A stretch of DNA of 63,668 nucleotides from Burkholderiales bacterium (GTDB lineage: Bacteria; Pseudomonadota; Gammaproteobacteria; Burkholderiales; Burkholderiaceae_C), in NCBI GenBank assembly GCA_031404155.1, contig JANNGZ010000009.1, forward strand, positions 1-63,668, read 5' to 3'. The notes beneath the pieces are model-generated. The model was not told the DNA's origin. It saw nothing but the letters and a program-made list of their open reading frames with translations, and made no database searches. Positions 2,273 through 44,524 of this stretch are shown here, piece after piece (positions within the stretch are counted from its first letter, which is position 1; the number at the start of each line of letters is the position of its first letter). A program made the position numbers and the translations under genes.

Positions 2273-2845
2273 TCACCGGGTCGTGACGATGGTCACGCGA
2301 CGATTCTCGGGTGCGTCGACGCGTTGGGTGTCCAGCAGTTCGCTGGAACCCTTGCCGACCGCAACCAGCCGTTCGGACAGGATGCCGCGCGCACTGACGA
2401 GGTAGTCCACGACCGCTTTGGCGCGCTGCTCGGACAGCGTCATGTTTCGCTCTGCCGCGCCTCGTGGATCGGCGTGGCCCTCGACGCGGAACGCGAAGCC
2501 CGCCAGCGTGTCCGATTGCAAAGCCCGGGCCACGGTGTCCAGGATCTTGATGCTGTCGTCGGTCAGCGTCGCGGAGTCGGTGAGGAAGGTGACCATCAGG
2601 TTCGCCTTTCCGGGGCCGGGCGCCCGGGCCGGATTGCCTTGGGCCGAGGTCGCCGGGCGGAAACCCCGCGTCTGGCCACCTTCGGCGGCCTGAGGTGCTT
2701 CGATCGCCAGCATGTCGACCAAGGTGTCCTCGGTGACCTGCGCGCCCTTCAGCACTTTGGCGGGCTGGGCCCATGCAGCCGAGGCCGGAAGTAGCAAAGT
2801 GGCCAGCAGGGCGGCCAGCCGGATGAATTGCGTCAAGGTCGACAT
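2273..2845 (-). CDS. secreted OmpA-like (peptidoglycan-binding) domain protein
   Basis: I chose the internal ATG at 2845 (MSTLTQFIRLAALLATLLLPASAAWA|QP, a signal peptide). The C-terminus (FRVEGHADPRG..NM.LS..RA.AV..YL......RL...G.G...........NRRV) is a classic OmpA_C-like fold. It lies 53 bp downstream of the TpsA gene on the same strand. Confidence 0.8.
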   Translation of the reverse strand: MSTLTQFIRLAALLATLLLPASAAWAQPAKVLKGAQVTEDTLVDMLAIEAPQAAEGGQTRGFRPATSAQGNPARAPGPGKANLMVTFLTDSATLTDDSIKILDTVARALQSDTLAGFAFRVEGHADPRGAAERNMTLSEQRAKAVVDYLVSARGILSERLVAVGKGSSELLDTQRVDAPENRRVTIVTTR

Positions 2846-2898
2846 CGTGTCTCTCCGCCGGTTGGGCTGTTGAAAGTAGTAGGGTGGTAACGCAGGCG

Positions 2899-5800
2899 TC
2901 AAGGCGCAAGCCCCTCGAGCCGGCGTTGCTCGAACAGGTAGTCGGACCCGGCTTCGTGGCGTGCGAGTCGGGCCGCGCCATATCGCGGGCGTTGCGGCAA
3001 CTCCCGCGCCACCGCGAACCGCACCTGTTCGAACACATTGCCGCCCGGGCGCCAAGTCGTCACCTTCTCGAGCGACCGCATCAGGTTCCAGGCAAAGGAC
3101 GAGTGGCCGTTCTTGCCGGCATCGGCGACCGGCTCGTTGCCGCCGGAGGACATCACGACCGCGGCGCGCCGGTTGAGCAGGACGCTCGGGTCGATCGTCT
3201 GCCCGAGGGCCCGGATGCGTTCGTCGGAGGCCAAGCTGCCCGAGAAGCAACTGTCGGAGATCAGGGCCACCTGGCTGGCGCCCATCTGGCCGAGCAACTT
3301 GCCGATGTCGTCGTTGGAGATCCAGGTCTGCGGCCGGGTTGCGTCGGCATTGGAGGGCTGCCAGTAGCCGAGCCCGGTCTTCTCCACCAACTCGCCGTGG
3401 CCGGCGTAATAGACCACCACCGAATCGTTGGGCTTGACCTGCACGGCCAGCCGATTGAGCGTGGCCAGGATCATCTCGCGCGTGCCGTCGCGGATGACCA
3501 GGGTTTCATATCCGAGTTCGTCGCCAAGGACCTTGGCGATGGCCTGGGCGTCCGCGCGCGCGTTGTCCAGCTTGGGAATACGCTTGTCTTCGAAGTTGTC
3601 GTTGCCAATGACGACGGCGATCTTGCGCTGGATTTGTGGCAGCGACGCTTGGCGCACGATGCGCTGGGACGGCAGGCTGACGACGACGGCGGGCGGGGCA
3701 GCCGCCGCGGTTGCTGTCCGTGCGGCAGCGGGTGCGGCAGCCGGCGCTGCAGGTGTCGGGGGCGCTGTCGCGGTCGCGGCCGTTGCGGGCGGTGGCGCGG
3801 CCGGCGCGGTGGTCGAGGCCACGGCGGCTGGCTTCGGCGCAGCCGAGGGCGACTCGATGGTCGCGGCTGCGGCGATCTGGGCCTTGAGTTCCTCGGTCAC
3901 GAGGCAGGTGCCGGTGTCGAGCTGCTCGACGGAGAGACACGCGGGCGCATCGGCCAGCGTCGGGTCGTTCTCGAGCAAGCGCACGGCTTCGCCGAAGAGC
4001 GACTTCTTGAACTTCCCGCGCGCGACGAGCAGGGTGGTCAGCTCTTCCAGCGACAGGTTGCCGACGTCCAGGCTTCCGAATGCGATCCTCCCGCCAGCCG
4101 GCTCGACGCTTATCGCCTGCAAGACGTCGAGGGTACGGCCGTCGGCGGGTGTGCTGAACCGCGCCGGCGGCAATACCGGCAGCTCGGTGAGGTCGGGCAG
4201 GATCGCTCGCGGTGACGCTGCGATCACCAGCGCCGTCGCATTGCCCGGGGCCTGCGCGAACGTGTAGTTCGCCGCTGTCAGCCCGGAGCCGGTCAGCGCA
4301 TAACTGCCCGGCAATTTCGGGTCCGCGGGCGTCAGCACGACAGGTGTTCCGCGGGTCGCGGTCGCCAGCGTGTCCGACCCGACGAGGCCCGTCACGTCGA
4401 CGCTCAAACCGGTCAGCGGTTGCCCCTCGAAGACGGTGACCGGCTTGGCCACATAGGTCAGCGTGGCTGGTGTGACCGAAGCCAGCGCGGTCGTGACCGG
4501 TTGAACCAGGCGGTAGTTCGCGCCGTCGCTGCCGCCCAGCGCCGTTGCGGTCGCGGTGACGGTTTTGACTTGCCCGACGTTCGGGTCTGCAAAGACACCC
4601 GAGCCGGATGCCACCGACACCTGATCTCCGGCGATGGCGCCGGACAAGGTCCAGCCGGTGACGGTTGCCGCCGCGCTGGCGTCGTAGATCTTGTCCGCGG
4701 CGGTCGCGGCCGTCACAGAAATGTCCCGCTGCGTGATGTTGGCGGTGGTGACCGTGCCGCCGCGCAGCGCGTAGTTGCCGGCCAGGCCGCCGTTGGTACC
4801 GTTGCCCAGGCCAGCGGTGATGTTCACGGTTTTGCCGGTGCCGGCGTTCTTGTTCTCGAACTGGGCACTGGGGCTGAAGGCCAGGCTTTCGGAGCCGACC
4901 AGGCCGGTGAGCGTGCCGCTGCCCACAAGCATGGCTGTGGTGTTGCCGTCATAGACCTTGTGGGCCGCGCTCACGCCGCTGAGCGTGAGCGGCCTGGGCG
5001 TGATGGCGGCCGTGGCGGTGACCACGCCGCTGCCGGGCAGCGCGTAGTTGGCCGCCAGGCCGCCGTTGGCGCCGTCCGCCAGCGCGACGGTGCCGGTGAC
5101 GGTCTTGCCCGTACCGGCGTCCTTGGTGTCGAACTGGCCGCTGGGGCTGAAGGTCAGGCGCTCGGAGCCGACCAGGCCGAAGAGCGTTCCGGTCAGCGTG
5201 GCCACGTTGTTGCCGTCGTAGACCTTGTCGGCCGCACTCACGCCACTTAGTGTGAGCGGCTTGCGCGTGATGTCGGCGGTGGTGGTGGCCGAGCCGCTGG
5301 CCAGCGCGTAGTTGGCAGCCAGGCCGCCGTTGGCGCCGTTGGCCAGCGCTCCCGCGAGGTAGACGGTCTTGCCGGTGCCGGCGTCCTTGGTGTCGAACTG
5401 GCCGGTGGGTATGAACGTCAAGCTCTCGGAGCCGACCAGGCCGCTGAGCGCGCCGCTGCCCAAGAGCGTGGCGGTGGTCGTGCCGTCATAGACCTTGCTG
5501 GCCGCACTCACGCCGCCGAGCGTGAGCGCCTGGGGGGTGACGTCGCCGATGACGTCAAAACCCGCCACGGTGTAGCCGTACGTGGTCTTGCCGTCCGCAT
5601 CGACGATCGAAGGCAGGCCGCCGAATCCGCTCACCGTGATCGACTTGGAGCGGCCGACGTTCTTGTCGGCGTAGCTCAAGGCGCTGTAGGTCAAGCTGCC
5701 GCTGGCGCGGTCGCTGTCGACGAGCCCGGTGAGTTGCAGCGACGCGCTTGTGGGCAGGACGGCCGTGTTGCCGTCGTATGTCTTGGTGATGGCTGCCCCG

Positions 5801-8800
5801 TTGACAACCGTCAGGGTGGGAGCCAAACCGAACAGCAGGCCGTTGCCGCTGCCGGCGGGGACCGCGGAGCCGTACAAGGCGTTGTACTGACGGAAATCGT
5901 GCACCAGACCGCCGGCATCGATCGAGCTGGGCCGGTCCGCATAGATCAGCCAGCGGCCATTCGGAGCGAACAGCGCGGTCGTGTTGGCCGAGTTGCCGAA
6001 GAAGTGGGTGTTCGGATTGCTGTTGCCGGCCACCGTGATGGCATCGCCGGTCGCGGAACCGGTCACGCGGCCACCGTAGATTTTCAGATCGTCGGCAAGC
6101 AGTTGGATCGGCGCGGAGATGTTGCTGATGCGGGGGAAGTCCTCACAGCCGCAACCGATCTGGATACTCGAGCTTTGAAGCCTCAGTGCAGCCGGGCCGG
6201 TGAAGCTCAGGTTGGAGGATCCCGTCACCCTGAGGGTCCCGGTGCCGCCGATGAAGGCTAGATTGGGCGAGCCTGCAATGGCGGCGCCGTCGATTCGGAT
6301 GTCGGCCGAAGCGATGTCAAGCCGGGTGGCGCCCCACGGGTTGCCGCTCCTGGGGGTCAGGATGCTGGTCAGCGATGTTCCCTCGCCATCGAAGTAGTCG
6401 AACAGCCCCACCGTGCCGTCCGGCGACCGGATCAGCAGGTTGCGCGCCCTGGAGGCATCGATCATCGAGGCCTGGCTGTAAACACCATAGTGGTAGCCGT
6501 TGTTGCTGGTGTTGTTGCCCAGAATCGTCAGGTCGGCGCCGTTCTTGGCGGTGATGCGCGAGAAGGGGTCGAGGTAAACGCCCGCGCGGTCCCTGTAGGT
6601 CGGCGCATCGGGTACCCGATCGTTCACCGTCCCGATCAGGGAGAGAGCCGGGTTGGACGAGTCGGCCGCGATGAGCGTGACCCCGCCATCGATCCGGGTT
6701 CCCGCCACCGAGCTGTTGGCGTGAAAGACGGGCGATATCGCCGTGCCCTCGACTGCCAGCGGCCCGGTCGAGGTCAGGTTGCCGCTGATCGAAACGCCGG
6801 TGCGGTTGGTGAAGTTCGCCGTTCCGATCACCGCTGAGCCGGCCGAATTTACCCAGCCTTTGATGTCCACGGCGGCGGCGGTGATCGTGCTGCCCGGCGA
6901 GACGCGAATCCCGTAGGCGTCGCTGTCGACGGCCGCGCTCGCGCCGCGCATCGTCAACGAACCCGAACCTGCGGCCAGCACGGATCCCACGATGCTGATC
7001 GCGGTACCGCGTGCATAGTTTGACCCCGGGTCGTTGTAGCCGACAGCGCCGGTGAAGGGCGAAGTCGCGGTCGGACCCACCAACTGCGTCAGGCCGCCCA
7101 GGTTGATGTTGCCGCCGGCGCTGGTGATCGTGGAGTTGTCGACGACGATCGTGCCGGCGCCTGCGGCGGCGGCGCGCAGATTCACGGCCAATGGTGAGCC
7201 GGCGCTGGAGATGGTCGAGTCGACGACGTCGATGTTCCGGCTCGCGGTCAGCGTCAGGCTCACCGGCGAGGAGGGCGCGACACTGAGGGTCGCCTGGCTC
7301 ATCGTGATGTCGCCGGCTTGGCTGCTCGGCGACGCCGAGCCGGTGGTGACCGTCACGTTGTTGCCGGCGTTCAGCGCCGAGACGATGCTGCTGCTGAGCA
7401 GGACGGCACCGTTCCCGGTCGTCCTGAAGTCCGGCCCGCCGGTGATGTTGGATTCGGGCGCGGCACTGTCGGTGATGAGGATGTTGTTCGGGTCCAGCAG
7501 CCAGGTTCCCGCGCGGCCCCTGGGTGCATCGGTGCGCACCGACGCCGGTTGGGCGTCGAGCCAGCCGCCCGAGGTCTCGATGAAGCCGCCGTTGCCGCCT
7601 CCGGGGCCGCCGCGGGCACTGAGGCTGCCGAACGCCCGCGTCGCCTGGTCGCTCCACAGGACGATTCGCCCACCGTCACCCAGCCCGGTGGCGTCGGCGC
7701 CGATGCTCGCCCCGGCCCCCATGTAAACCGCTTGCGCATTGGGTACCCCGGCGTCACGCCCCTGCACGCCGCCGCCGACCAGCACCTCGCCGCCGCCCTG
7801 AAGCCCCGAGGCGTCGACCACGGCACCGTCGACCATTCCGACCTGACGCCCGAGCAGCTTCACCGCGCCGCCCTGTGTTGCCTGGCCCACGGCTTCAACC
7901 CGGCCAGCGTGCATCGCCGTACCGCCGCCGGCGTCGAGCGTCACCTGGCCGCCTGCGCCGCCATTGGCGCTGGTCAAGCTGCCTGCTCCGGTGTTCAAGG
8001 ATTCACTGGCACGCAGCACCACCTGGCCGGCGGCGCCAGCGATCGAATCGGCACGCACGATCCCTTGCTGGTTGACGATCGCCGCGCTCAGGTCGACGAA
8101 GCCACCGCCGGCCGACAGGCTGCCCAGGTTCAGCGCCTGCCCCTGCGGCGCCTGCACGCGCACGGCCAGGTTGGGCAGGCCGGAGTCGACCAAATCCACA
8201 CTGTGACCGGCAGCGAGCACCACCTGCCCGCCGGGCGCCTCGACGAGGCCTTCATTGCGCACACCACCCGCACCACCGAGCAACAGAACCCGGCCGCCGG
8301 TCGTGGAGCGAAGCTCGCCCTGGTTGACCACTTCGGCGTGGCTGGCGCCAGGCAGGGTGCTGGACGACAGGCTCAGGCGCTGCGCCTGCCAGTTGGCGTT
8401 GCTGATGCTCAGCGTTGAGGTCACCAGCCCCGCCACATCGACGCGGGCGTCGCGTCCGAACAGGACACCGTTCGGGTTGAGCAACCACACCTTGCCGTTG
8501 CTGCTGATGCTGCCAAAGATGTTCGACGGGTCGTTGCCCACAACGCGGTTGAGCACCTGGCTCGTGGCGCTGGGCTGCTCGAAACGCACCGCATTGCCCG
8601 CGCCCACGGAGAAGGTCTGCCAGTTCAGCAACGCGTTGGCGCTGTTGGTCACCGTCATGCGGCTGCCGGTGACAGCCACGGAAGCTTGCCCCTGCACCAC
8701 GTTCAGACCGCTGGGCAGCGCTTGCGCGCGCACGTCCGCGGCGCCATACCGCAGCGCCAGCGGCGTGCCCATCGTGAGGGCCAGGGCCAGCGCCATCGGT

Positions 8801-8886
8801 TGAAGCCGGAAGCGGCGATGCGCACGGCGTGACGGCCCGACGCTCGCGGCTCTGGCCGTGCGGTGGCTGGTTGCAGTCTTGCTCAT
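2899..8886 (-). CDS. two-partner-secretion exoprotein (TpsA, filamentous-hemagglutinin family) with C-terminal caspase-like (peptidase C14) domain
   Basis: 1995 aa. Extended signal peptide, then a TPS domain (GLNVVQGQA..NWQTFSVG....V.F.QP......LNRVVG..PS.I.G.....G.VWLLNPNGVLFG). This is followed by long G/S/A/T-rich beta-helix sequence, about 90-aa KVYDG.. (YDG/MBG-type) repeats and an Ala/Pro-rich linker. The last 241 aa contain VVVYYAGHG (His codon 3397-3399) and ALISDSCFSG (Cys codon 3247-3249). Confidence 0.9.
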   Translation of the reverse strand: MSKTATSHRTARAASVGPSRRAHRRFRLQPMALALALTMGTPLALRYGAADVRAQALPSGLNVVQGQASVAVTGSRMTVTNSANALLNWQTFSVGAGNAVRFEQPSATSQVLNRVVGNDPSNIFGSISSNGKVWLLNPNGVLFGRDARVDVAGLVTSTLSISNANWQAQRLSLSSSTLPGASHAEVVNQGELRSTTGGRVLLLGGAGGVRNEGLVEAPGGQVVLAAGHSVDLVDSGLPNLAVRVQAPQGQALNLGSLSAGGGFVDLSAAIVNQQGIVRADSIAGAAGQVVLRASESLNTGAGSLTSANGGAGGQVTLDAGGGTAMHAGRVEAVGQATQGGAVKLLGRQVGMVDGAVVDASGLQGGGEVLVGGGVQGRDAGVPNAQAVYMGAGASIGADATGLGDGGRIVLWSDQATRAFGSLSARGGPGGGNGGFIETSGGWLDAQPASVRTDAPRGRAGTWLLDPNNILITDSAAPESNITGGPDFRTTGNGAVLLSSSIVSALNAGNNVTVTTGSASPSSQAGDITMSQATLSVAPSSPVSLTLTASRNIDVVDSTISSAGSPLAVNLRAAAAGAGTIVVDNSTITSAGGNINLGGLTQLVGPTATSPFTGAVGYNDPGSNYARGTAISIVGSVLAAGSGSLTMRGASAAVDSDAYGIRVSPGSTITAAAVDIKGWVNSAGSAVIGTANFTNRTGVSISGNLTSTGPLAVEGTAISPVFHANSSVAGTRIDGGVTLIAADSSNPALSLIGTVNDRVPDAPTYRDRAGVYLDPFSRITAKNGADLTILGNNTSNNGYHYGVYSQASMIDASRARNLLIRSPDGTVGLFDYFDGEGTSLTSILTPRSGNPWGATRLDIASADIRIDGAAIAGSPNLAFIGGTGTLRVTGSSNLSFTGPAALRLQSSSIQIGCGCEDFPRISNISAPIQLLADDLKIYGGRVTGSATGDAITVAGNSNPNTHFFGNSANTTALFAPNGRWLIYADRPSSIDAGGLVHDFRQYNALYGSAVPAGSGNGLLFGLAPTLTVVNGAAITKTYDGNTAVLPTSASLQLTGLVDSDRASGSLTYSALSYADKNVGRSKSITVSGFGGLPSIVDADGKTTYGYTVAGFDVIGDVTPQALTLGGVSAASKVYDGTTTATLLGSGALSGLVGSESLTFIPTGQFDTKDAGTGKTVYLAGALANGANGGLAANYALASGSATTTADITRKPLTLSGVSAADKVYDGNNVATLTGTLFGLVGSERLTFSPSGQFDTKDAGTGKTVTGTVALADGANGGLAANYALPGSGVVTATAAITPRPLTLSGVSAAHKVYDGNTTAMLVGSGTLTGLVGSESLAFSPSAQFENKNAGTGKTVNITAGLGNGTNGGLAGNYALRGGTVTTANITQRDISVTAATAADKIYDASAAATVTGWTLSGAIAGDQVSVASGSGVFADPNVGQVKTVTATATALGGSDGANYRLVQPVTTALASVTPATLTYVAKPVTVFEGQPLTGLSVDVTGLVGSDTLATATRGTPVVLTPADPKLPGSYALTGSGLTAANYTFAQAPGNATALVIAASPRAILPDLTELPVLPPARFSTPADGRTLDVLQAISVEPAGGRIAFGSLDVGNLSLEELTTLLVARGKFKKSLFGEAVRLLENDPTLADAPACLSVEQLDTGTCLVTEELKAQIAAAATIESPSAAPKPAAVASTTAPAAPPPATAATATAPPTPAAPAAAPAAARTATAAAAPPAVVVSLPSQRIVRQASLPQIQRKIAVVIGNDNFEDKRIPKLDNARADAQAIAKVLGDELGYETLVIRDGTREMILATLNRLAVQVKPNDSVVVYYAGHGELVEKTGLGYWQPSNADATRPQTWISNDDIGKLLGQMGASQVALISDSCFSGSLASDERIRALGQTIDPSVLLNRRAAVVMSSGGNEPVADAGKNGHSSFAWNLMRSLEKVTTWRPGGNVFEQVRFAVARELPQRPRYGAARLARHEAGSDYLFEQRRLEGLAP
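4600..5560. repeat. in-frame tandem repeats (period 267-270 bp, at least 4 copies) inside the TpsA gene
   Basis: The landmark (T/C)AGA(C/T)CTTG recurs at 4685, 4952, 5219 and 5489. The encoded units are KVYDG(T/N)..ATL.G...GLVGSE.L(T/A)F.P.GQFDTKDAGTGKTV......GANGGLAANYAL. Boundaries are approximate. Confidence 0.7.
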
Positions 8887-8943
8887 GATGGACCCTTAGA
8901 TGTCAGGCCGGCGCGGTGCTACGTGCGACGCCAGGGCGGTGGA

Positions 8944-10569
8944 TCAAATCGTGTAGACAACCGAGAAATGGGCCCGCGCGTCGTTCTTGCGGGTACGTAC
9001 CGCGTCGCGCAGCGCACCGGCAAGGGCCAGCCGCGCTTGCAGCCTGCCCCATTCAAAGCGGGAGCCGATCCCCAAGGACGCGAGCGAGCACCGCGCAGAG
9101 GTGCCCAGGCAAGGTGTGCCGAAGTGGTTGAAAGCCTGGCCGGCATCGGCGAAGGCGAAAATCCGCAGCACCCGGTCGGCCGGCCCGACCAGCGGCATCA
9201 GGTTCGGGCCGGTCAGTTCGACCGACACCAGCAAGCCTTGATCGCCCAGGACTTCGCGTTCTTGGTAGCCGCGCACGGAGTTAACACCGCCGATGCCGTA
9301 CTGCTCGCCGGGAACCAGCGCATCGGCGCTGAACTGACCCGCGAAACGCACGCGCAGGTCCCACGCCTCGGCCACCGCCATGCTGGCGAACGCGCCGTAG
9401 TGCAGCGCCGTGTAGCGCACCCTGGCGTCGGGCCGCACCGCCGCGAAGCTGGCGGCGTCGGAATAGCGACCGCCGAGTTTCAGGTTGGTCTGCAAGGACG
9501 CCGACAGCCCGAACGCGGGCGCCCCGCCTGACTGCAGGCTGTAGCCCAACGACAAGGGCTGCACCGACACGCTGGCGCCGGCTGTGCCGCAAGCACCCGC
9601 AGGCAGCCCGGCGATGCCGCAGCGGTTGAGGTATTCGCGGTTGTCCACACCGAGCGAAACGCGCTGGTCGGCTTCGCCAACACGGGGCAGATACCAGGTC
9701 CCGCGCACGCCAGCGATGCGGCCGTTGCCGTTGAAGCGCAAGTCACCCGCGGCCGTGGGGACGGACCCGCCGTCGACATCCGAGTAGGCGGCAAAGGCGT
9801 CGACCACCATCAGCTGCTTGTAGCGCGGAAAGCGGTATCCGGCGCTGAGGACCCGGACCCGGTCGGGTTGTGTGGGTGAGGTCTGGAACTGCGCCGTGAA
9901 CACGTCGTCGTGCCCGCTCAGGTTGGCGTGTTGCCAGGCGACGCTGGCGCGGTACTCTCCCGTGCCGCTGGTGCCCGTGTTGTCCAGGGCCAGCGTCACG
10001 TGCCGCAGCGACCCTTCCTGCACCGTCACCTCGGCTTCGGTCTCACCGGGGCCGCTTCCGGGTTTGAGCAGTACGCGCACCCGCTTGGACGGGTTCTCGT
10101 TGGAGATCTGCATCTGGGCGTCGATCCTGCGCATGCGCGGCGTGGCACCAACGACCAGATCGGGCAGGCTCGCCCGGATGTTGGCTTCGTTGAAAACCTG
10201 CGCGCCACGAACATTCACGGCCGAAACCCGGCCCTCCACCACCACCAGCGAGATGACGCCGTCGCTGCGGGTTTGCGGCGGCACGTAGGCGACCACGCCG
10301 CCATAGCCCATGTCGACGTAGAGCCGCTGCACCGCCCGAGCCGCTGCGCCAAGTTCCTCCAGGGTGCGCCGCCCTTTGAACGGTGCCAGCGCGCGCTCGA
10401 TCGCCTCAGCGGTCACCAGCGTGTTGCCGCTGACCTGGAATGCGGTGACCTCGACCGACGCGGGTGTTGCGGCGTCGGCAGCGTAGGCTGGCGACCCGCC
10501 GGCGATGGCAAGCACCAGGACGATCGACGCTGCGGCTCGCCGGCCGCGTACCAACGCCTCAATTGCCAT
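8944..10569 (-). CDS. TpsB outer-membrane transporter (ShlB/FhaC/HecB family)
   Basis: 541 aa. Signal peptide (..GGSPAYA|AD), a POTRA-like N-terminus (F.VSGNTLV....IE.AL.PF.GR..TLEEL..A...V...Y...GY) and a C-terminal beta-barrel with alternating aromatic pattern ending ..AHFSVVYTI. It lies 57 bp upstream of the TpsA gene. Confidence 0.85.
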   Translation of the reverse strand: MAIEALVRGRRAAASIVLVLAIAGGSPAYAADAATPASVEVTAFQVSGNTLVTAEAIERALAPFKGRRTLEELGAAARAVQRLYVDMGYGGVVAYVPPQTRSDGVISLVVVEGRVSAVNVRGAQVFNEANIRASLPDLVVGATPRMRRIDAQMQISNENPSKRVRVLLKPGSGPGETEAEVTVQEGSLRHVTLALDNTGTSGTGEYRASVAWQHANLSGHDDVFTAQFQTSPTQPDRVRVLSAGYRFPRYKQLMVVDAFAAYSDVDGGSVPTAAGDLRFNGNGRIAGVRGTWYLPRVGEADQRVSLGVDNREYLNRCGIAGLPAGACGTAGASVSVQPLSLGYSLQSGGAPAFGLSASLQTNLKLGGRYSDAASFAAVRPDARVRYTALHYGAFASMAVAEAWDLRVRFAGQFSADALVPGEQYGIGGVNSVRGYQEREVLGDQGLLVSVELTGPNLMPLVGPADRVLRIFAFADAGQAFNHFGTPCLGTSARCSLASLGIGSRFEWGRLQARLALAGALRDAVRTRKNDARAHFSVVYTI

Positions 10570-10827
10570 TGTCAGCGCCTCCGTGGCGACCGGTCACAGT
10601 CGCGTACCCCGCGTTTGTCGTTGTCATGCCGCACTCAAAGCCCCCGCGTCTTGTCCTGAGGACGACAGCGCAATCTACGCCACCGGACTTCGAACCAACA
10701 ACGGGTTTTCCGCCCGTAACTTCAGCTTAGGGGGAAGTAGGTGCCTGGCGGTGACCTCGGCGATGCGCGCTTGTCCAAGCCCCAACGAGCCGCGCGCCGC
10801 GTGGCCGGGCGTGTCCGGCCGCCGGCG

Positions 10828-12666
10828 TCAGCGAACCACTTCGACGGTGAAGCGCGCCGCGCCGTAGACGTCGCAGTTCGCGCCCACGCAATCGGCCTTA
10901 CCGGCCAGGGCCGAACCATTGCCGGCATGGGCGCGCGCCACCGTGAGCGTCGAGTCACCGGTATCGATCTTCAGGAACCCGTATGCGCTGACGACGGTAT
11001 GGCCAAAGCCGGAGAAGTCCCGCTCGTGCTCGGAAACGATCACGATCACCTGCGCAATGCCGATCGGCTCGGCCGCGACGATCGCCCAACTGGGTTGCGG
11101 CAATGCCAGGGTCTGCCCCGCCGCGATCCGGTTCTGGCTCGACTTGCCGTTGGGGAACATGCGGTACAGCGATCCGTCGGGGTCGTTCCAAAGTACGTAG
11201 ACAAATCCGGCCCGGCTGGACGTGACGGTGAAGGCCAGCTTGTCCTTGTCGATGCGCAGCAGCGTCCTGCGCGCGCTCGCCTCGACGCTGAAGCCTGCAG
11301 TCTGGGCGCCGACGATGCGGTCGAACTCGTCGGGCACCGAGAGCGGCCGCGCTGCGGCAGGCGTCACGGCGGCGGGCGGCACGGGCGCGGGGACAGCGAC
11401 CCTGCCCGGCAACGCCGCGTCCTGACCGCGCGTGGAGGCGTCCGGCGCAGGCCGAATGACGGTTGAACCCGTGGGCGGCCCGGCACCCGGGCGCAAAGCC
11501 AGAAACGCCGCGAGTCCCGCGACCGCGAGTGCGCTCGCGCCGACGCCGAACCAGATGCGCCCGCGGCCCTTGCCCGTGGCGCCAGCGCCGTTGTTTGCAG
11601 CACGGCGGCTGGCCGCGTCGCCGGGGCGAGGCGCGTTCGGTTCGCCGATGAGCGTCGAATCGAAGAACGATGCCGGAAGCGTCTCCAGGCCTTCGGCCAC
11701 ATGCACCGCCAGGCCGAGTTCCGCACGCAGGTCATTGATGGTCCGGGTGCGATCCTCGGGCTTGACGCGCAGTGCACGGTCGATCGCGCGCAGGAAAGGG
11801 TCGCTGTAGCGCCTCGCAGCCAGCTCCGCCAGCGGCACATAGGTGTCGCTCAGCATGCGGCCCACGGCCGTCGGTGGCGTCTTGCCCGCGATCGCGAAGT
11901 ACACGCAGGCGGCGAGCGCGTAGACATCGGTCCACGGGCCCTGTTTCATGCTGTCGACCTCGGCGTACTGCTCCACCGGCGCGTAGCCGGGCTTCAGGAT
12001 CACGGTGAGCGCCTGGGTCATGTCGCCGATCACGCGCCGCGCGGCGCCGAAGTCCAGCAGCAAGGGGCGCCCCGAGCCCTCCAGCAGGATCACGTTGTCC
12101 GGCGCGATGTCACGGTGGAAGCAGCTCTCGGCATGGATCACGTTGAGCGCCTCGGTCAGCGGCCCGAGGATGCCCATGAGCCAGCTCTCGTCCGGCGGGC
12201 CTGCGGACTCGCGCAGCTTGTCCTTCAGGGTGATGCCCTGGTAGAAGGGCATCACCATGTACGCGGTACCGTTGGCCTCCCAGAAACGGTAGACCTTGAC
12301 CAGCGCCGGGTGGTCGAACTGCGCCAGCAAGCGCGCTTCATTGACAAAGCTTCTCAGGCCGGCCGTGAAAGTCTCGCGATGCCGCTCCGACTTCACCACC
12401 ACCTGCGAGCCCCCGGTGCGCGCCGCGAGCGCCGAGGGCATGTACTCCTTGAGCGCGACGCGGCGGCCGAGCGAAAGGTCCATCGCCAGGTACACGATGC
12501 CGAATCCGCCTTCGCCCAGCACACGCGTGAGTTCGAACTCGGCAAGCCTGGTGCCCTCGGGCAGGGCGTTGCGATAGTCGATCGTCGGGGCGGCAGCGGC
12601 GGGCAGCGGCGGGCCGCTGTGTGCTGCTGGGCGGATCAGCGTGCGGTCGTCGTCGTCAGTGCTCAT
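10828..12666 (-). CDS. transmembrane Hanks-type Ser/Thr protein kinase with C-terminal DUF4384-like periplasmic domain
   Basis: LGEGGFGIVY..VALKEY (G-loop/Lys), HRDIAPDNVIL, DFGAAR and GYAPVEQY. One TM helix (IWFGVGASALAVAGLAAFLAL). The C-terminus (KLAFTVTSSRAGFVYVLWNDPDGSLYRMFPN......RIAAGQTLALP......AAEPIGIAQVIVIVSE) fits the DUF4384 pattern. Confidence 0.9.
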   Translation of the reverse strand: MSTDDDDRTLIRPAAHSGPPLPAAAAPTIDYRNALPEGTRLAEFELTRVLGEGGFGIVYLAMDLSLGRRVALKEYMPSALAARTGGSQVVVKSERHRETFTAGLRSFVNEARLLAQFDHPALVKVYRFWEANGTAYMVMPFYQGITLKDKLRESAGPPDESWLMGILGPLTEALNVIHAESCFHRDIAPDNVILLEGSGRPLLLDFGAARRVIGDMTQALTVILKPGYAPVEQYAEVDSMKQGPWTDVYALAACVYFAIAGKTPPTAVGRMLSDTYVPLAELAARRYSDPFLRAIDRALRVKPEDRTRTINDLRAELGLAVHVAEGLETLPASFFDSTLIGEPNAPRPGDAASRRAANNGAGATGKGRGRIWFGVGASALAVAGLAAFLALRPGAGPPTGSTVIRPAPDASTRGQDAALPGRVAVPAPVPPAAVTPAAARPLSVPDEFDRIVGAQTAGFSVEASARRTLLRIDKDKLAFTVTSSRAGFVYVLWNDPDGSLYRMFPNGKSSQNRIAAGQTLALPQPSWAIVAAEPIGIAQVIVIVSEHERDFSGFGHTVVSAYGFLKIDTGDSTLTVARAHAGNGSALAGKADCVGANCDVYGAARFTVEVVR

Positions 12667-13178
12667 CGAAATCGGTCACGCTCTTGTCCGAACCAACGTT
12701 TCAGGATTGTGGCCTACCGCTGCGCGGCAAACGCTCGGCGCACCGAGCGGTACCGAGACGAGATGCGTGCGATCCGGTTTGGCGCGCGGCAGCTGCGCCG
12801 TGCGCGACAGTGGCATCGACAGGGACGTGCTTGCAGGGTGGCGATGGCGAGCCTGCGATGAATGTCGAAGGGCGCCTTCGATCGAGCCCGGCGTCACCCC
12901 CCTAGTTCGAATCACTGACCGGCAGCCACGGTGAGGAAGCCTTGCGGGGTGCCTCGGCCAGCGAGTGTTTGCCCTGTCGTGCGATCAATATCGATTCAAG
13001 TAGATTCGGCGCATGTCGTGTGTTAGCTTGAGACGTCGCCTCGGTGCCTCAACCAAACTGCTGCGGGCATGCGTGGCCTCGGCAAGGGCTGCCAAGATCG
13101 CCATCTCGCTCGTAGCGCACGGCCGGTGTATCGATCGCGTTCCGGAAGAATTCAGCCAATGACGCAGAAGAGGAAGCC
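12667..13178. promoter_or_regulatory. divergent intergenic region between the kinase gene and tssB; presumed T6SS promoter/operator region
   Basis: 512 bp non-coding, with a locally A+T-richer stretch (about 12970-13030) and a 7-bp-stem hairpin TCGAAGG-gcg-CCTTCGA (12865-12881). No consensus promoter could be assigned by eye. Confidence 0.3.
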
Positions 13179-13689: not shown

Positions 13690-15192
13690 ATGAGTGCGAC
13701 CAAAGCCAAAGGTGGTGACGCGTCCGTCGTCACCACCACCACCACCGAAGGCGGCCTGGGTCTGCTCGACCAGGTGATCGGCGCCACGAAGCAGACCGAG
13801 CGCGACCGCGCCGAAGAGCTGATCCGCGCGCTGACCGAAGAGGCGCTGAAGGGGACCGTCACCTTCAGCCGCAATCTGGTGGTCACCTTCGACCGCGCCA
13901 TTGCCGAGATCGACCGCAAGGTGTCCGAGCAACTCAACGCGATCATGCACAACGAGCGTTTCCTCAAGCTCGAAGGCAGCTGGCGCGGGCTGAGCTACCT
14001 CGTGATGAACAGCGAGACCGGCACCAGCCTGAAGATCCGGATGCTGCAACTGCCGAAAAAGGAGATGGCCAGGGATCTGCAGAAGGCGGTTGAGTTCGAC
14101 CAAAGCCAGCTCTTCAAGAAGATCTACGAGAACGAATTCGGCACGCCGGGCGGCGAGCCCTACGGCGCGCTGATCGGGGATTACGAGTGGACGGCCCACC
14201 CCGACGACGTCGAGACGCTGCGCCTGGTCTCCAACGTGGCGGCCGGCGCATTCGCGCCCTTCATCTCCGGCGTCGGCGCCGGCATGTTCGGCTTCGATAA
14301 CTGGAGCGAGCTGTCCAAGCCGCGCGACCTGGCCAAGATCTTCGAGACGGCCGAGTACACCAAGTGGCGCGGCTTCCGCGAAACCGAGGACTCGCGCTTC
14401 GTCAACCTGGTCATGCCGCGGGTGATCTCGCGCGTGCCCTACGGTGCTGCGACCAAGGCGGTCGAGGAATTCAGCTACGAGGAAGCGCCGGTCAACACAG
14501 ACGGCTCTGCCAAGGCGATGGATCACGACCACTACTGCTGGATGAATGCGGCCTACGTGATGGGCACCCGGCTGACGGACGCCTTCGCCCAATACGGCTT
14601 CTGTACCGCGATCCGTGGCGCCGAAGGCGGCGGCAAAGTCAACGACCTGCCCACGCATACTTTCACCTCCGACGATGGTGACGGCGACGCCAAGTGCCCG
14701 ACCGAGATCGGCATCACCGACCGGCGCGAGGCCGAGTTGTCCAATCTCGGCTTCCTGCCCCTTTGCCACTACAAGAACACCGACTACGCGGTGTTCTTCG
14801 GCGCGCAGTCGGCGCAGGCACCGAAGAAGTACGACCGGCCCGACGCCACCGCGAATGCGGCCATCTCGGCACGCCTGCCCTACGTCATGGCCACGAGCAG
14901 GTTTGCGCACTTCCTGAAGGTCATGGCACGCGACAAGATCGGGTCGTTCATGGAAGCCTCGGACTGTGAGATCTGGCTCAACCGCTGGATTCAGAACTAC
15001 GTGAATCCGATGGAGGGCGGCGGGCAGGAATCGCGAGCCAAGTACCCCTTGCGCGAAGCCAAGGTCGAGGTCAAGGAAATCCCGGGGAAGCCCGGCTCCT
15101 ACAACGCAGTTGCCTATCTGCGCCCCTGGCTGCAGATGGAAGAGCTGACAACGTCGATGCGAATGGTGGCGCGTATTCCGCAGAAGTCCTGA
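13690..15192 (+). CDS. tssC: T6SS contractile sheath large subunit TssC (VipB/ImpC)
   Basis: 500 aa. [30 protein letters not shown] and [10 protein letters not shown]...PGKPG.Y.AV..LRP..Q.E. Confidence 0.95.
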
Positions 15193-15213: not shown

Positions 15214-16737
15214 ATGGTCGATGCGGGCAAAGAAACGCTCCGGGAAACGGTGCTTTCCGGGCGTTTGCTGAGCCACGCGTCCGCCGCCTCCGATCTCGCG
15301 GTGCTGGTGGCCTCTTCTGATGCCGCTACGCACTTGCGGCTGTGGTTCGGCGAAGGGTGGCTCGCCTCTCTGGCGGCGCAGGGCCAGCCCGCGGAAGTCC
15401 TGCGCGCTGCGGTCGACAGGGACATCACCGCCATCGACGCGCTGGTGTCGAGCCAGCTCGACGCGGTGCTTCACCATCCCCGGCTTCGTCGGCTTGAAGG
15501 GTCCTGGCGCGGGCTGGCGTGGCTCGCGGGCCGCGTGCCCCAAACCGGCACCCGCATCCGCCTGAAGCTGCTGCACGCGCGGTGGGCCGAGGTTTGCCGC
15601 GACATCGAGCGTGCGCTCGAGTTCGACCAGAGCCATCTCTTTCGCAAGATCCACGACGAGGAGTTCGGCATGGCGGGCGGCGCACCCTTCGGGCTCATCG
15701 CTGCCGACTATGAAATCCGGCACCGGTCGGCGCTTCATCATCCCACCGACGACGTCGGTGCCCTCTCGGGTTTGGCCGGCATTGCAGCAGCTGCCTTCTC
15801 GCCGATGATCATCGGCGCTTCGCCGGAGTTTTTGGGTCTGGACAGCTTCGCCAATGCGTCGCCGAGTTTCGACCCCACCGTCGCTATTCGGGGGCCCGAC
15901 CATCAGCGTTGGCGAAACGCGGCGGCGCGCGAGGACTTGCGATTCATCGGTATCGCCCTGCCTCGCGTGTTGGCTCGCGCGCCCTGGGTTGACGATGGCA
16001 GTCGCGTCGACCGATTTCGCTATCGCGGTTTCACCCCTGGCGTGGCGCAACGGGTCTGGACGAGCCCGGTCTACGGCTTCGCCGCCGTCGCCATCCGTGC
16101 CTTCGACCGCTATTCCTGGCCGGCGGAGGTGCGCGGCGCCGATATCTCGGACGAGGCCCAGGGCGGCGTGCTCGATGGCCTGCCGTTCGAGTGTTTCTAC
16201 TCCGATCTTGCGCATGAAGCGCCGGCCAGGGCACCCGTGGAAGTTGCGCTCACCGACCAGCAGGAAGACCAGATCAGCGAGGCCGGTCTGATTCCTTTGT
16301 CCGCGCTCGATGGTCTGTCCGAGGCCTGTTTTGGCGCTTTACCGTCCCTGCACCGGCCGCCCTCAATGTCCACCTCTGTGGCGCAAGCCAATCAGCGTCT
16401 GTCGGCTCAACTCAACACGATACTGTGTGTCAGTCGCTTTGCCCATTGCGTCAAGCTGATGGGGCGCGACATGGTCGGCAGCTACGCCGAAGCAGGCGAA
16501 GTGGAGACTCGGCTGCAGCGTTGGCTCAACGGCTTCGTCAGCGGCATCGGTTCCGGAGGCGCCGAGGTCACGGCCAAGTACCCCTTGCTGGAAGCCCGGG
16601 TGGAAGTACGCGAACGGTCCGGCCGTCCCGGCGTGTACAACTGCACCGTTCACCTCAAGCCGCACCACCAACTCGACGACATTGGTGCTTCGTTCAGGCT
16701 GGTGACCGAATTCGTACCGCGACAGGCCGCCGCCTGA
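15214..16737 (+). CDS. second, divergent TssC-family sheath paralog (ImpD/TssC40-like)
   Basis: 507 aa. It aligns by eye to the preceding TssC ([15 protein letters not shown]; EEFGMAGGAPFGLIAADYE; KYPLLEARVEVRERSGRPGVYNCTVHLKPHHQL) but is clearly diverged. Confidence 0.85.
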   Translation: MVDAGKETLRETVLSGRLLSHASAASDLAVLVASSDAATHLRLWFGEGWLASLAAQGQPAEVLRAAVDRDITAIDALVSSQLDAVLHHPRLRRLEGSWRGLAWLAGRVPQTGTRIRLKLLHARWAEVCRDIERALEFDQSHLFRKIHDEEFGMAGGAPFGLIAADYEIRHRSALHHPTDDVGALSGLAGIAAAAFSPMIIGASPEFLGLDSFANASPSFDPTVAIRGPDHQRWRNAAAREDLRFIGIALPRVLARAPWVDDGSRVDRFRYRGFTPGVAQRVWTSPVYGFAAVAIRAFDRYSWPAEVRGADISDEAQGGVLDGLPFECFYSDLAHEAPARAPVEVALTDQQEDQISEAGLIPLSALDGLSEACFGALPSLHRPPSMSTSVAQANQRLSAQLNTILCVSRFAHCVKLMGRDMVGSYAEAGEVETRLQRWLNGFVSGIGSGGAEVTAKYPLLEARVEVRERSGRPGVYNCTVHLKPHHQLDDIGASFRLVTEFVPRQAAA

Positions 16738-16763: not shown

Positions 16764-17567
16764 ATGACCACCGCTGGTGATGCCCTTCGCTCCGGCGATG
16801 TCGCCGCAGCCCTTGCCGCCGCCACCGCCGCCGTCAAGGCCGCACCCACCGACGCCGATGCACGGTGGCTCATGGCCGAACTCCTGCTCATCACGGGCGA
16901 AGCGGAGCGGGCCGATCGCATGCTCGACGCGGCGGCGCTGCACGAGCCCAACCCCGCGGTGCTCGAGTTCCGCAAGCTTCTCAGGGCCGAAGTGTTGCGA
17001 ACACAGGTTTTGCGTGAGGGCAGGGCGCCGAAGTACCAGGGTGACGATGCCACGCCGGCACAGAAGGCTGCGCTGCGTGCGCGCATGCTGCTGCGGCTGG
17101 GCGACGCAACCGGCGCCACCGAAGCTGCGGCAGAGGTCGAGACCCTGCGAGCGCGGGCGCCAGGCCGGCTGGAGGGCGCCGACGGCAGCGCGGTGCCCTT
17201 CGACGACCTGCGCGATGTCGATGATTTGCTGGCGGCAGAACTCGAAGTGCTGACCACCGCAGGCGACTACATGCTGGTGCCCGTCGAGCGGGTGCGCTCG
17301 CTTGCCTTCGATGCGCCACGGCGCAGCCGCGACCTCATCTGGCGTCGCTGCGCCATCGACCTCAAGGACGGCACCGAGGGTGTGGTCTACCTGCCGGCGA
17401 TCTACCTCGGCGCGGTGGCCGAGACCGACAACGCACTTCGGCTGGGCCGCGCAACCGAGTGGACCGATCCCGCCGAGGGGCCGGTGCGCGGACGAGGGCA
17501 GCGAGTGCTGTTGGTGGGAGACCAGGCGCTTGCGTTCACCGCGGTCGAGACAGTGGTCTTCGATTGA
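16764..17567 (+). CDS. tagJ: T6SS accessory protein TagJ (ImpE family, TPR-like N-terminus)
   Basis: I chose the internal ATG at 16764. The ImpE-like pattern is L..G....A........VKA.P.DA..R....ELL...GE.ERAD..LD... with C-terminal LEV.T..G.Y..VP...V..L.F..P.R.RDL.W. Confidence 0.8.
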   Translation: MTTAGDALRSGDVAAALAAATAAVKAAPTDADARWLMAELLLITGEAERADRMLDAAALHEPNPAVLEFRKLLRAEVLRTQVLREGRAPKYQGDDATPAQKAALRARMLLRLGDATGATEAAAEVETLRARAPGRLEGADGSAVPFDDLRDVDDLLAAELEVLTTAGDYMLVPVERVRSLAFDAPRRSRDLIWRRCAIDLKDGTEGVVYLPAIYLGAVAETDNALRLGRATEWTDPAEGPVRGRGQRVLLVGDQALAFTAVETVVFD

Positions 17568-37123: not shown

Positions 37124-37302
37124 GCCCGCCGGGCCGCCCCAAGGGCGAATACCGAAGTGCGCAGCACGGAGGTACACCAGTGAGCCCGCCGGGCCGCCCC
37201 AAGGGCGAATACCGAAGTGCGCAGCACGGAGGTTGCCTGATGAGCCCGCACGGCCGCCCGAAGGGCGACAGCACCGAAGTACGCAGTACGGAGGTTGCCT
37301 GA
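37121..37302. repeat. three tandem copies (60, 60, 62 bp) of the junction element between tssK and tssL
   Basis: Copies at 37121-37180, 37181-37240 and 37241-37302. Copies 1 and 2 are identical except for their last approximately 8 nt. Each carries hairpins CGCCC-caa-GGGCG and GTGC-gca-GCAC and ends in GGAGGT. Together they form an open mini-ORF from 37120 to 37302. Confidence 0.9.
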
Positions 37303-43579: not shown

Positions 43580-44524
43580 TCAGCGACGCTCGGCCCATTC
43601 CATCCGTGGTGCACCGTCGAGGAAGCGGCGCCGCATCGAGTCCAGCGTCCTCTCGTCGACGCCGAGGTCGGCCGCGCTGAAGGCGCGGGGGTCGGTGGAA
43701 TGCATCAGGAAGGCCTGTGCCTCGTTGATCATCAGCTCGTTGTCGCGCGGGTTGTAGCCGCGGCGCTCCAGATAGGCGACGAAGCGCTCGCGCTCGGCAG
43801 CGGTCAGCCGCTCGTGCCAGAAGCGACGGCAGTGGTCGGCATAAGCCGGCGTCGTGAAGTAGACGCCGTGGCTGAGTTCGTGGCGGGCGACGGACGCGCG
43901 CATCGCCGCGTCGAGGTCGGTGCCGGGCTGCGCGCGCGTGAAGGTGATCAGCACCGACGACGGCTGCCGAGCGCCTTGCTCGGCCTCGCCGTTCGACGCC
44001 AGCAGGCCGTGCCGCCGCAGGATCGACTCCAGCTGGCGCTCCTCGGCCGTCAGCACGATGTTCTGGCGCCCGGCGAGCGCGAAGAAGCGTCGAAGGTTTT
44101 GCGCCGTCTGGTCGTGGCCGTAGTAGAAGGTCTCGGGTGTCAGCTTCTGGCGTGCGATCAACGCGGACAGTTCAGCGTCATCGAGCACACGATCGCGCGG
44201 CGCGTCCGGCTGCTCGACGAGCGCGGCGGCGCGGTTGAGGGCTCGTGCCTGCGCCCGCAGGTCGGGGAACTGGATCACCAGCAATTCCGGATGGCTGTGC
44301 AGGCGGGCGAGTTGCCATCCCTCCGCCGGCGCTTGCGCCAACAGTTGCGTCAAGCTCAGCCGGGGCAAGGCGTCCGTCACCGAAGCGCGCGACCAGAGCC
44401 AAGCGGCCCAGAAAATGCCGCCCAGCACGACGGCCACTGCCAGAACAAACATCGCCTGGATCAGGCGACGTCGGGCGGAAGCTGTGACCACGGCCGCACC
44501 AACTGCGGCTTCACGCTCGAACAT
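43580..44524 (-). CDS. membrane-anchored hypothetical protein with HExxH motif (putative zinc metallopeptidase-like)
   Basis: 314 aa. N-terminal TM helix (LIQAMFVLAVAVVLGGIFWAAWLW) and VARHELSHGVYF in the C-terminal half. It is convergent with tagF-pppA across a 42-bp gap. Confidence 0.55.
   Translation of the reverse strand: MFEREAAVGAAVVTASARRRLIQAMFVLAVAVVLGGIFWAAWLWSRASVTDALPRLSLTQLLAQAPAEGWQLARLHSHPELLVIQFPDLRAQARALNRAAALVEQPDAPRDRVLDDAELSALIARQKLTPETFYYGHDQTAQNLRRFFALAGRQNIVLTAEERQLESILRRHGLLASNGEAEQGARQPSSVLITFTRAQPGTDLDAAMRASVARHELSHGVYFTTPAYADHCRRFWHERLTAAERERFVAYLERRGYNPRDNELMINEAQAFLMHSTDPRAFSAADLGVDERTLDSMRRRFLDGAPRMEWAERR

Follow-up and report, generated by a model that had tools for sequence, protein, structure and literature searches.

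The window analyzed in this study, a stretch of 63,668 nucleotides from a Burkholderiales bacterium (contig JANNGZ010000009.1), carries next to a type VI secretion system (T6SS) a gene module whose membership is well supported: the outer-membrane transporter TpsB, the exoprotein TpsA with a C-terminal clan-CD protease domain, an OmpA-like peptidoglycan binder, a protein family termed Fam3, a Hanks kinase with a DUF4384 domain, and a PP2C phosphatase. Based on sequence and gene context, the module is tentatively interpreted as an input branch of the threonine-phosphorylation pathway of the neighboring T6SS, where it would act as a periplasmic, protease-coupled sensor of contact or of the state of the envelope. 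Individually, the components fall into known families (type Vb secretion, Peptidase_C14, OmpA_C-like proteins, Hanks kinases and the T6SS phosphorylation pathway) and their assembly was not found in the searched literature; what is probably new is the input branch of the T6SS phosphorylation switch, the class of TpsA proteins and one uncharacterized protein family, Fam3.

All open reading frames (ORFs) of the window were listed and translated, and domains were assigned by Pfam and in some cases by NCBIfam. A search with an alignment of the C14 protease domain against one genome per species matched 264 relatives, and the window proteins were mapped onto the best 78 of these loci. Coverage was good on both sides in 29 of them (referred to as well covered), 74 could be evaluated for the OmpA gene, and kinase or T6SS genes were counted as neighbors of the TpsA-C14 gene within a distance of 10 kb. 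A metagenome scan seeded with the kinase added 23 well-covered DUF4384-kinase loci, the C14 domain was searched against 1.8 billion protein cluster representatives, and Fam3 was found by clustering all ORFs of the fetched loci. Nearly all of the best 78 loci are labeled Burkholderiales or betaproteobacteria and belong to the Rubrivivax/Roseateles/Aquabacterium/Piscinibacter group, and a few contigs from metagenome-assembled genomes among them bear other taxon labels.

Four of the module genes follow each other on the minus strand of the window, in the order kinase (10828-12666), TpsB (8944-10569), TpsA (2899-8886) and OmpA-like protein (2273-2845). The gaps of 258, 57, and 53 bp given for these genes in an initial annotation of the DNA are exact, and Pfam recovers each of the domains that it named in the four proteins. 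The initial annotation regarded the four genes as one functional unit. The association of kinase, TPS-caspase (two-partner secretion, TPS) and OmpA is indeed recurrent and not confined to a single strain, with TpsB-TpsA-C14-OmpA found again across genomes, but the tight, predicted operon consists of TpsB-TpsA-OmpA, the position and orientation of the kinase gene are variable, and the set is larger than four genes in that it includes Fam3, which carries an HExxH motif, and the PP2C phosphatase. The 258-bp gap between the kinase and TpsB genes contains only a weak hairpin that is no stronger than in shuffled sequence, and the signals picked up when the module was scanned for promoters and terminators did not exceed those of shuffled sequence. 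Co-transcription of the kinase and TpsB genes is therefore no more than a possibility, and in other genomes the kinase gene is often divergent or convergent. The divergent intergenic region of 512 bp between the kinase gene and tssB (12667-13178) has the same arrangement in a relative with 84% identity, and no match to the sigma-70 consensus was found in it.

TpsB (541 aa) has a signal peptide and the domains of an outer-membrane transporter (Pfam POTRA_2, 6.5e-14; ShlB, 4.9e-27, the ShlB/FhaC barrel), and a TpsB gene lies upstream of TpsA-C14 in essentially every locus with enough sequence. The TpsA exoprotein is 1995 aa long, or 1965 aa from the start used by the database gene caller (Met31), and matches the TPS domain (Pfam, 1.8e-29; TIGR01901, 8.6e-23), five YDG repeats, MBG_2, and Peptidase_C14 (1.1e-20). 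With a gap of 57 bp between them, the two genes have the features of a two-partner (type Vb) secretion system, and export of TpsA is predicted. From the N terminus (all coordinates on the minus strand), TpsA consists of the TPS domain (aa 54-268, nt 8083-8727) with an NPNG motif at aa 137, a long central region, the YDG/MBG_2 repeats (aa ~1100-1550, nt 4237-5589), a conserved linker with Cys1650 and Cys1661 (nt ~3892-4089), a Pro/Ala-rich stretch of 65 residues (22% Pro, 48% Ala; aa ~1671-1735, nt ~3682-3876), and the C-terminal C14 domain (aa 1754-1970, nt 2977-3627). The predicted catalytic residues of the C14 domain, His1830 in the motif YYAGHG and Cys1880 in SDSCFSG, form a dyad that is invariant in 22 homologues, and the domain has distant similarity to PDB 3BIJ. 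By these features it is of the p20-type clan-CD fold with an intact His/Cys dyad and is a predicted protease. The domain is also the most conserved segment of TpsA (~54-72% identity across loci compared with 27-54% for the central region). The motifs VENN, VDNN, and LYN were not found in TpsA, and Pfam detected no Fil_haemagg repeats.

The C14 and TPS domains share a single ORF in 50 out of 56 cases and the best 150 C14 matches among the cluster representatives all lie at the extreme C terminus of proteins of 1200-3600 aa, which indicates that TpsA-C14 is a real protein class. As judged from sequence it is also a large one, with 1255 cluster representatives at E ≤ 1e-30 for the C14-domain family, and all five of the giant C14 proteins that were sampled begin with a TPS domain. 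Stand-alone caspases of 250 aa were considered as a separate class of genes and rejected, as ORF tracing showed most of them to be TpsA ends truncated by contig borders. A fusion of OmpA and C14 (P0172) was likewise considered as a Rosetta-stone link between the two proteins; it joins the C terminus of C14 to residue ~70 of OmpA at a locus whose TpsB and TpsA genes are broken up as well. A deletion, a pseudogene, or an assembly problem is its probable origin, and it was not counted as evidence. The splitting of TpsB and TpsA into several ORFs and the fused C14-OmpA ORF are both present in two assemblies (L007, 5005-11671, and L008), and may mean either that this copy of the module is decaying or that the assemblies share a systematic error. 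Tandem duplications of TpsA-C14 genes were observed at two loci (L047, 5390-17376; L054, 1553-10804), and each copy in L054 has its own TpsB.

The TpsB-TpsA-C14 arrangement is essentially invariant among the caspase-seeded loci. Among the well-covered loci, a DUF4384 kinase is present in 10 out of 29, T6SS genes in 9 out of 29, and one or both in 17 out of 29. Random placement in a genome of 5-6 Mb would put such genes within 10 kb in roughly 1% of cases, and the linkage of kinase and T6SS genes to TpsA-C14 exceeds chance. The gene order around the cassette is variable: the kinase gene may lie upstream, either divergent or co-directional (the latter as in the window), or downstream and convergent, and the cassette may lie inside the T6SS cluster between tssK/tssL and tssA-tssB (L018, L025), diverge from tssA-tssB-tssC (L047, L057, L076, L080), or abut the tagF end of the cluster (L060, L063). 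Five loci (L007, L014, L024, L033, L056) have the kinase gene immediately next to the TPS cassette while T6SS genes are out of range. Among these loci, L047 and L057 come from the culturable Roseateles agri R3-3 and Pseudorhodoferax sp. Leaf274, and L056, with the order TpsB-TpsA-C14-OmpA-Fam3-kinase, from Piscinibacter sakaiensis 201-F6. Linkage that is kept while the gene order is shuffled is strong evidence of functional coupling, and the coupling between the TPS cassette and the kinase/phosphatase pair is probably real. In the closest relative (84% identity of the kinase, on two metagenome contigs), tssB is followed by the divergent genes for kinase, TpsB, TpsA-C14, and OmpA; the far flank differs from that of the window, which places the boundary of the module just after OmpA.

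The OmpA-like protein (190 aa; Pfam OmpA, 2.7e-19) is predicted to be an exported peptidoglycan binder. Its gene starts at the ATG at 2845 and not at the upstream TTG of the mechanically called ORF, and its signal is of the signal peptidase I type without a lipobox. An OmpA gene was found in 54 of the 74 evaluable caspase-seeded loci, 42 of which have it as the next gene downstream on the strand of TpsA. Of the 29 well-covered loci, 26 contain it. OmpA proteins of the type that accompanies TPS genes and Fam3 share the N-terminal motif G-x-T-R-G-F/I-R-P (G-x-T-R-G-F-R-P in the window), with the first Arg kept in at least 90% of 67 sequences; the OmpA proteins found with T6SS genes only do not match this pattern. 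Orthocaspases cleave after basic residues (PMC6426788), and for this reason the TRGFRP segment may be a cleavage or recognition site for the protease. One subgroup of TpsA-C14 loci (L019, L030, L035, L037, L071, L074, L077, L082, L087) lacks the OmpA gene and continues with genes for ferrochelatase, a protein with adenylate-cyclase and FHA domains, rpoD, and dnaG, where the FHA protein maybe reflects coincidental synteny.

Fam3 was overlooked in the initial annotation and is, by its gene associations, the fifth member of the module. In the window it is an uncharacterized protein of 314 aa (43580-44524, minus strand) with an N-terminal transmembrane anchor and a predicted periplasmic orientation, encoded at the far end of the T6SS cluster and convergent with the gene for the TagF-PP2C fusion. 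Members of the family are ~315-380 aa long with an N-terminal transmembrane helix, and the HExxH motif (H215, E216, H219) and E268 are invariant in 57 sequences. Sequence searches of Fam3 against Pfam, NCBIfam, and the PDB gave no match. The structural model is of high confidence (pLDDT 90.4) and its best fold matches in the PDB are zincins, anthrax lethal factor and BACCAC_01431, at non-significant values (E ≥ 0.19). The Fam3 gene directly follows the OmpA gene in 22 of the 78 caspase-seeded loci and in a further five loci (L009, L088, L089, L171, L172). The T6SS of the window thus lies between Fam3 at one end and kinase-TpsB-TpsA-OmpA at the other, as it does in a relative with 89% identity, and at a locus whose T6SS proteins are 68-82% identical to those of the window (L063) the order is C14-OmpA-Fam3 followed by tagF-PP2C. 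In the alphaproteobacterium Falsiroseomonas (L088), OmpA-Fam3 form the end of a T6SS operon that contains no TPS genes and is laid out like that of the window, with which it shares two tssC genes, impE, and a methyltransferase gene.

The kinase is a transmembrane Ser/Thr kinase of the Hanks type (612 aa; Pfam Pkinase, 1.3e-25) with a kinase domain (aa 45-266), a transmembrane helix (~aa 373-393), a Pro/Ala-rich linker, and a predicted periplasmic beta-sandwich (~aa 440-612) that contains the DUF4384 match (2e-14, aa 475-547). The catalytic residues K73, HRD184-186, N191, and DFG205-207 are invariant in 60 homologues, and a pair of cysteines in the DUF4384 region (Cys593/Cys598) is conserved. 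In the AlphaFold model (pLDDT 90.5 for the periplasmic part, with weak Ig/MG-like matches in the PDB) the DUF4384 domain is a disulfide-containing beta-sandwich carried on a Pro/Ala tether similar to that of TpsA. A fold search with the model of this domain returned generic beta-sandwich matches only (E ≥ 2.7e-3, template-modeling score ~0.3), and sequence searches of the PDB likewise gave nothing or trivial matches. The initial annotation stated that DUF4384 co-occurs with caspase and kinase domains, and this is documented: as an accessory domain, DUF4384 accompanies orthocaspases and one proteobacterial family of Ser/Thr kinases (PMC7475262; bioRxiv 10.1101/2025.01.12.632604).

The kinase had been described as sitting next to the T6SS, which understates the relationship. 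It is adjacent in the window, and its family is found mostly inside T6SS clusters after tagF: among the 23 well-covered kinase-seeded loci, 15 contain T6SS genes, three contain TPS genes, and five contain neither. The usual gene order in the loci with T6SS genes is tssK-tssL-tssM-tagF-kinase, and on long contigs the nearest homologues of the kinase lie at the end of fha-PP2C-(DUF4280)-OmpA-tssK-tssL-tssM-tagF-kinase clusters without TPS genes. A gene of the OmpA family is near the kinase gene in 14 of the 23 loci, often as kinase followed by convergent OmpA-PP2C-Fha. Within the window, the claim that the T6SS has a phosphatase and an FHA protein and no kinase besides this one was borne out. 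The cluster (13179-43537) encodes Fha/TagH, the phosphothreonine-reading scaffold (34337-35725, plus strand; Pfam FHA and T6SS_FHA_C, NCBIfam TIGR03354), and a TagF-PP2C fusion of the PppA type (42296-43537, plus strand; Pfam and NCBIfam TIGR03373) that forms the antagonist arm of phosphorylation; a Pfam scan of the cluster detected no kinase, and the only Hanks kinase found by tblastn of the whole window is that at 10828-12666. Since the kinase family is found mainly inside T6SS clusters, the kinase would supply the activity that is missing from the Fha/TagF-PP2C T6SS of the window, and by this evidence it is very probably the PpkA/TagE-type kinase of the adjacent T6SS, with Fha as its likely downstream target.

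A variant of the module was identified on three high-GC contigs that encode distant homologues of Fam3. These contigs carry PP2C-OmpA-Fam3 followed by convergent genes for a Pkinase+DUF4384 protein, a TPR-CHAT protein, and a giant TpsA. The kinase is 30% identical to that of the window, and the OmpA and Fam3 proteins are ~43% identical and clearly orthologous to their counterparts. The CHAT protease belongs to a different Pfam family from C14 and has no similarity to it by BLAST. Both full-length CHAT proteins (L089, L172) start with a lipoprotein signal peptide, suggesting that the protease of this variant is periplasmic, and in both loci the CHAT gene immediately follows TpsA with an overlap of 1 nt. 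The recurrence of one cast of proteins, namely TPS exoprotein, DUF4384 kinase, clan-CD protease, PP2C, OmpA, and Fam3, in which individual parts have been exchanged supports their joint action.

These observations can be combined into a model in which TpsB would export the TpsA filament to the cell surface, leaving the Pro/Ala-rich linker and the folded C14 domain in the periplasm, as described for the prodomain of FhaB. The partners of the protease there would be Fam3, the OmpA-like protein, and the kinase by way of its DUF4384 domain. Contact, envelope stress, or some other event at the filament would alter periplasmic proteolysis or binding and thereby activate the kinase, which would phosphorylate Fha and/or TssL and so license the assembly of the T6SS; TagF-PP2C would then reset the system. 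The periplasmic location of the C14 domain, any contact between protease and kinase, the substrates, and the signal are what we infer in this model. Its most specific form, in which the TpsA filament is a contact sensor that spans the outer membrane and proteolysis by the caspase (or the CHAT lipoprotein), together with OmpA and Fam3, activates the kinase and aims or licenses T6SS firing, is doubtful at present.

Several observations weigh against the module being an input to the T6SS. The kinase and T6SS genes are absent within 10 kb of 12 of the 29 well-covered TpsA-C14 loci, so the TPS cassette can be encoded apart from them and perhaps acts apart from them, and in some T6SS clusters the kinase is encoded together with an OmpA protein but with no TPS cassette nearby. 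No T6SS genes are present in the flanks read at the three loci of the CHAT variant, indicating that the output of the kinase need not be a T6SS. The model of the DUF4384 domain was uninformative in the fold search, and the domain may be a shared ligand sensor and not a partner of the protease. It is equally conceivable that the C-terminal caspase is exported and works extracellularly, and the topology and substrates of the module proteins are predictions from their sequences.

Some of these points fit an explanation in which two separate systems share a competition island: the kinase would be purely a PpkA, and TpsB, TpsA-C14, and OmpA would be an independent surface adhesin, exoprotease, or contact-dependent weapon, perhaps under the same regulation as the T6SS, with no signal passing directly between the two. 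The kinase family is found mainly in T6SS clusters without TPS genes, as the 12 cassettes mentioned above are found without kinase or T6SS genes; C-terminal caspase-like domains occur as toxin or releasing-peptidase domains in polymorphic toxins (PMC3482391), and YDG/MBG repeats are typical of adhesin-like exoproteins. However, separate systems would not be expected to leave the kinase gene beside the TPS cassette where T6SS genes are out of range, as in the five loci listed above, nor to bring a DUF4384 kinase, PP2C, OmpA, and Fam3 together with a TpsA and a clan-CD protease a second time, as in the loci of the CHAT variant, where the flanks read contain no T6SS genes, and OmpA-Fam3 is also found inside a T6SS cluster without TPS genes (L088). 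Two unconnected systems are regarded as an unlikely explanation, though the strongest of the alternatives.

Somewhat less likely still is that the clan-CD protease is a maturation or release protease of the TpsA filament, acting in cis as C14 or in trans as the CHAT lipoprotein in a manner comparable to SphB1 on FhaB, with OmpA anchoring the secretion complex to the peptidoglycan and with the kinase and PP2C regulating secretion or release without receiving a signal. Autoprocessing by caspase-like domains is known from toxins and large surface proteins (PMC3482391), a survey of prokaryotic caspases noted OmpA in 14 metacaspase operons (PMC3501461), the CHAT lipoproteins are encoded right after TpsA, with the 1-nt overlap in L089 and L172, and there is a weak resemblance, below the NCBIfam cut-off, to the adhesin-anchoring protein TpgA. 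This explanation leaves the recurrent embedding in T6SS clusters and the sharing of Fha and TagF-PP2C unaccounted for, and the periplasmic sensor domain of the kinase suggests that the signal flows inward. It is partly compatible with a sensory input to the T6SS, as the processing could itself be the signal.

The initial annotation also proposed contact-dependent competition and a programmed-death or conflict module. A toxin of the contact-dependent inhibition (CDI) type, in which C14 is delivered into neighboring cells and the downstream gene provides immunity, would agree with the TpsB/TpsA architecture ending in a distinct enzymatic domain and with the existence of Tox-caspase domains in other secretion contexts, but it is very unlikely given that neither a VENN-like pretoxin motif nor Fil_haemagg repeats were found in TpsA, that C14 is its most conserved segment and not a polymorphic tip, and that the downstream gene encodes an exported peptidoglycan binder that is also present without TPS genes. 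Programmed cell death, abortive infection, or an intracellular conflict driven by a bacterial caspase is the most improbable of the explanations: caspase-family proteases do act in several bacterial defense systems and the best NCBIfam match is "caspase, EACC1-associated type", below the cut-off (71.8 bits compared with 140), but every version of the protease is exported (C14 on TpsA, CHAT with a lipoprotein signal), there are no NTPase, STAND, or nucleotide-signaling partners, and all partners are envelope proteins.

The proposed input to the T6SS can be compared with phosphorylation pathways that have been described, namely TagQRST-PpkA-PppA-Fha1 of Pseudomonas aeruginosa, RtkS-PpkA of Serratia, TssW-PpkA-Fha of Acidovorax citrulli, and PpkA-TssL-Fha with TagF-PppA of Agrobacterium. 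They share with the window a Hanks kinase that crosses the membrane once, has a periplasmic domain, and maps to the T6SS cluster or its immediate flank along with Fha, PP2C, and TagF, and genes for accessory periplasmic or outer-membrane proteins lie beside the kinase gene (PMC6082577, PMC12607579, PMC13584744); the TagF-PP2C fusion of the window matches the Agrobacterium type. The upstream inputs of PpkA are species specific and act via its divergent periplasmic domain (TagQRST, RtkS, TssW; PMC6082577, PMC12607579). In contrast to these pathways, the periplasmic domain of the window kinase is DUF4384 by Pfam, its likeness to PpkA resting on domains and gene context, and the candidate inputs are the TPS pair, the clan-CD protease, the OmpA-like protein, and the HExxH protein; no annotation resembling TagQ, TagR, TagS, TagT, RtkS, or TssW turned up for these candidates. 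An equivalence of the A. citrulli TssW with OmpA or Fam3 was considered and set aside, the paper giving no domain or sequence that permits a comparison. FGE-sulfatase and DUF4384 are alternative domains in the "Proteo1" kinase family; an FGE-sulfatase-type domain in TagR of P. aeruginosa would be a parallel to this, which was not drawn on as evidence.

Bordetella FhaB/FhaC resembles the TPS pair of the window in that a TpsB is paired with a giant TpsA that has an N-terminal TPS domain and, in its C-terminal region, a proline-rich stretch followed by a conserved domain at the extreme C terminus. The C-terminal prodomain of FhaB with its proline-rich region is kept in the periplasm and relays information in both directions across the outer membrane along the polypeptide (PMC4542190). 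The C terminus of the window TpsA is, by its sequence, a caspase-family protease with intact catalytic residues in place of a degradable prodomain, periplasmic retention is suggested by analogy with FhaB, and the repeats are of the YDG/MBG and not the FhaB type. The CdiB/CdiA/CdiI systems likewise have a TPS pair with a TpsA that ends in a separate enzymatic domain, but the VENN/pretoxin motif, variable tip, and cytoplasmic immunity gene of those systems are missing from the pair described here. Bacterial orthocaspases and metacaspases share with the window C14 the p20-type domain and the His-Cys dyad, and DUF4384 is a known companion (PMC7475262). C-terminal caspase domains have been reported on large secreted proteins, and the export routes of Tox-caspases given in a survey of polymorphic toxins are the type II, VI, and VII secretion systems and Photorhabdus virulence cassettes (PVC), with type V secretion not listed (PMC3482391). 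The window differs from these cases in that C14 is fused to a type Vb exoprotein and DUF4384 is carried by a separate kinase and not by the protease.

Small OmpA/MotB-like accessory proteins of T6SSs (TagI of the Burkholderia T6SS-6 and the TagL, TagN, and TagP types) resemble the OmpA-like protein of the window in being small peptidoglycan-binding proteins encoded with T6SS genes (PMC13584744). The window protein differs in its signal peptidase I-type signal without a lipobox, its TRGFRP segment, and its association with Fam3 and the TPS cassette, and is set apart from TagI by description. A role in anchoring the T6SS membrane complex is unlikely because TssL carries its own OmpA extension. 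The statement in the initial annotation that no characterized system has this composition holds in the literature searched: no description of the module was found in the literature on DUF4384, on TPS with caspase or CHAT domains, and on T6SS accessory factors, and a 2026 review of the latter does not mention caspases, two-partner secretion, or DUF4384 (PMC13584744).

The T6SS cluster itself is assigned by Pfam and lies on the plus strand except for tssA. It contains tssB, two tssC genes, tagJ/impE, tssE, tssF, tssG, a methyltransferase gene, and unknown ORFs, and continues with tssA, clpV, hcp, vgrG, a PAAR gene, fha, tssK, tssL-OmpA, tssM, and tagF-PP2C. The two tssC (VipB) paralogues are in tandem (13690-15192 and 15214-16737) and are also found in the 84%-identical relative (L004/L005) and in Falsiroseomonas (L088), so that the duplication is a feature of this type of T6SS. 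The ORF at 16777-17253 has no Pfam match and is assigned as tagJ/impE by position alone, from the ImpE gene at the equivalent site in L004/L005. A gene for an S-adenosylmethionine-dependent methyltransferase with a MethyTransf_Reg domain (21052-22599) follows tssG and has the same position in L088, where OmpA-Fam3 come next. The GC content falls to ~0.63 at 22000-26500, between the methyltransferase gene and tssA, and the ORFs at 22701-23360, 23494-24987 (minus strand), 24977-25636, and 25579-26454 (minus strand) have no Pfam match; the region could be an effector/immunity region or a foreign insertion. TssL (37233-38684) is a long form with a C-terminal OmpA peptidoglycan-binding domain, and TagF and PP2C are joined in one protein, the arrangement reported for Agrobacterium, and are separate genes in many related clusters. 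No TssJ was identified among the T6SS ORFs scanned.

When and where a T6SS fires is an open question, and the known inputs to PpkA and Fha (TagQRST, RtkS, and TssW) are lineage specific and mechanistically unclear. If the interpretation proposed here is correct, the T6SS would receive input from parts that have not been linked to its control before (a type Vb exoprotein, a caspase-family protease, an OmpA-like protein, and an HExxH family), and in the most specific form of the model the module would be a caspase-based, proteolytic signaling route through the Gram-negative envelope and a class of input not yet described for T6SS phosphorylation, with the versions that lack a T6SS using the same sensor for other outputs. 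Bacterial orthocaspases and DUF4384 are widespread and of obscure function, and both would gain a concrete, testable role outside the cytoplasm. The module is widespread, and cultured carriers (Piscinibacter sakaiensis 201-F6, Roseateles agri, Roseateles toxinivorans, Aquincola tertiaricarbonis, and Pseudorhodoferax sp. Leaf274 among them) make experiments feasible.

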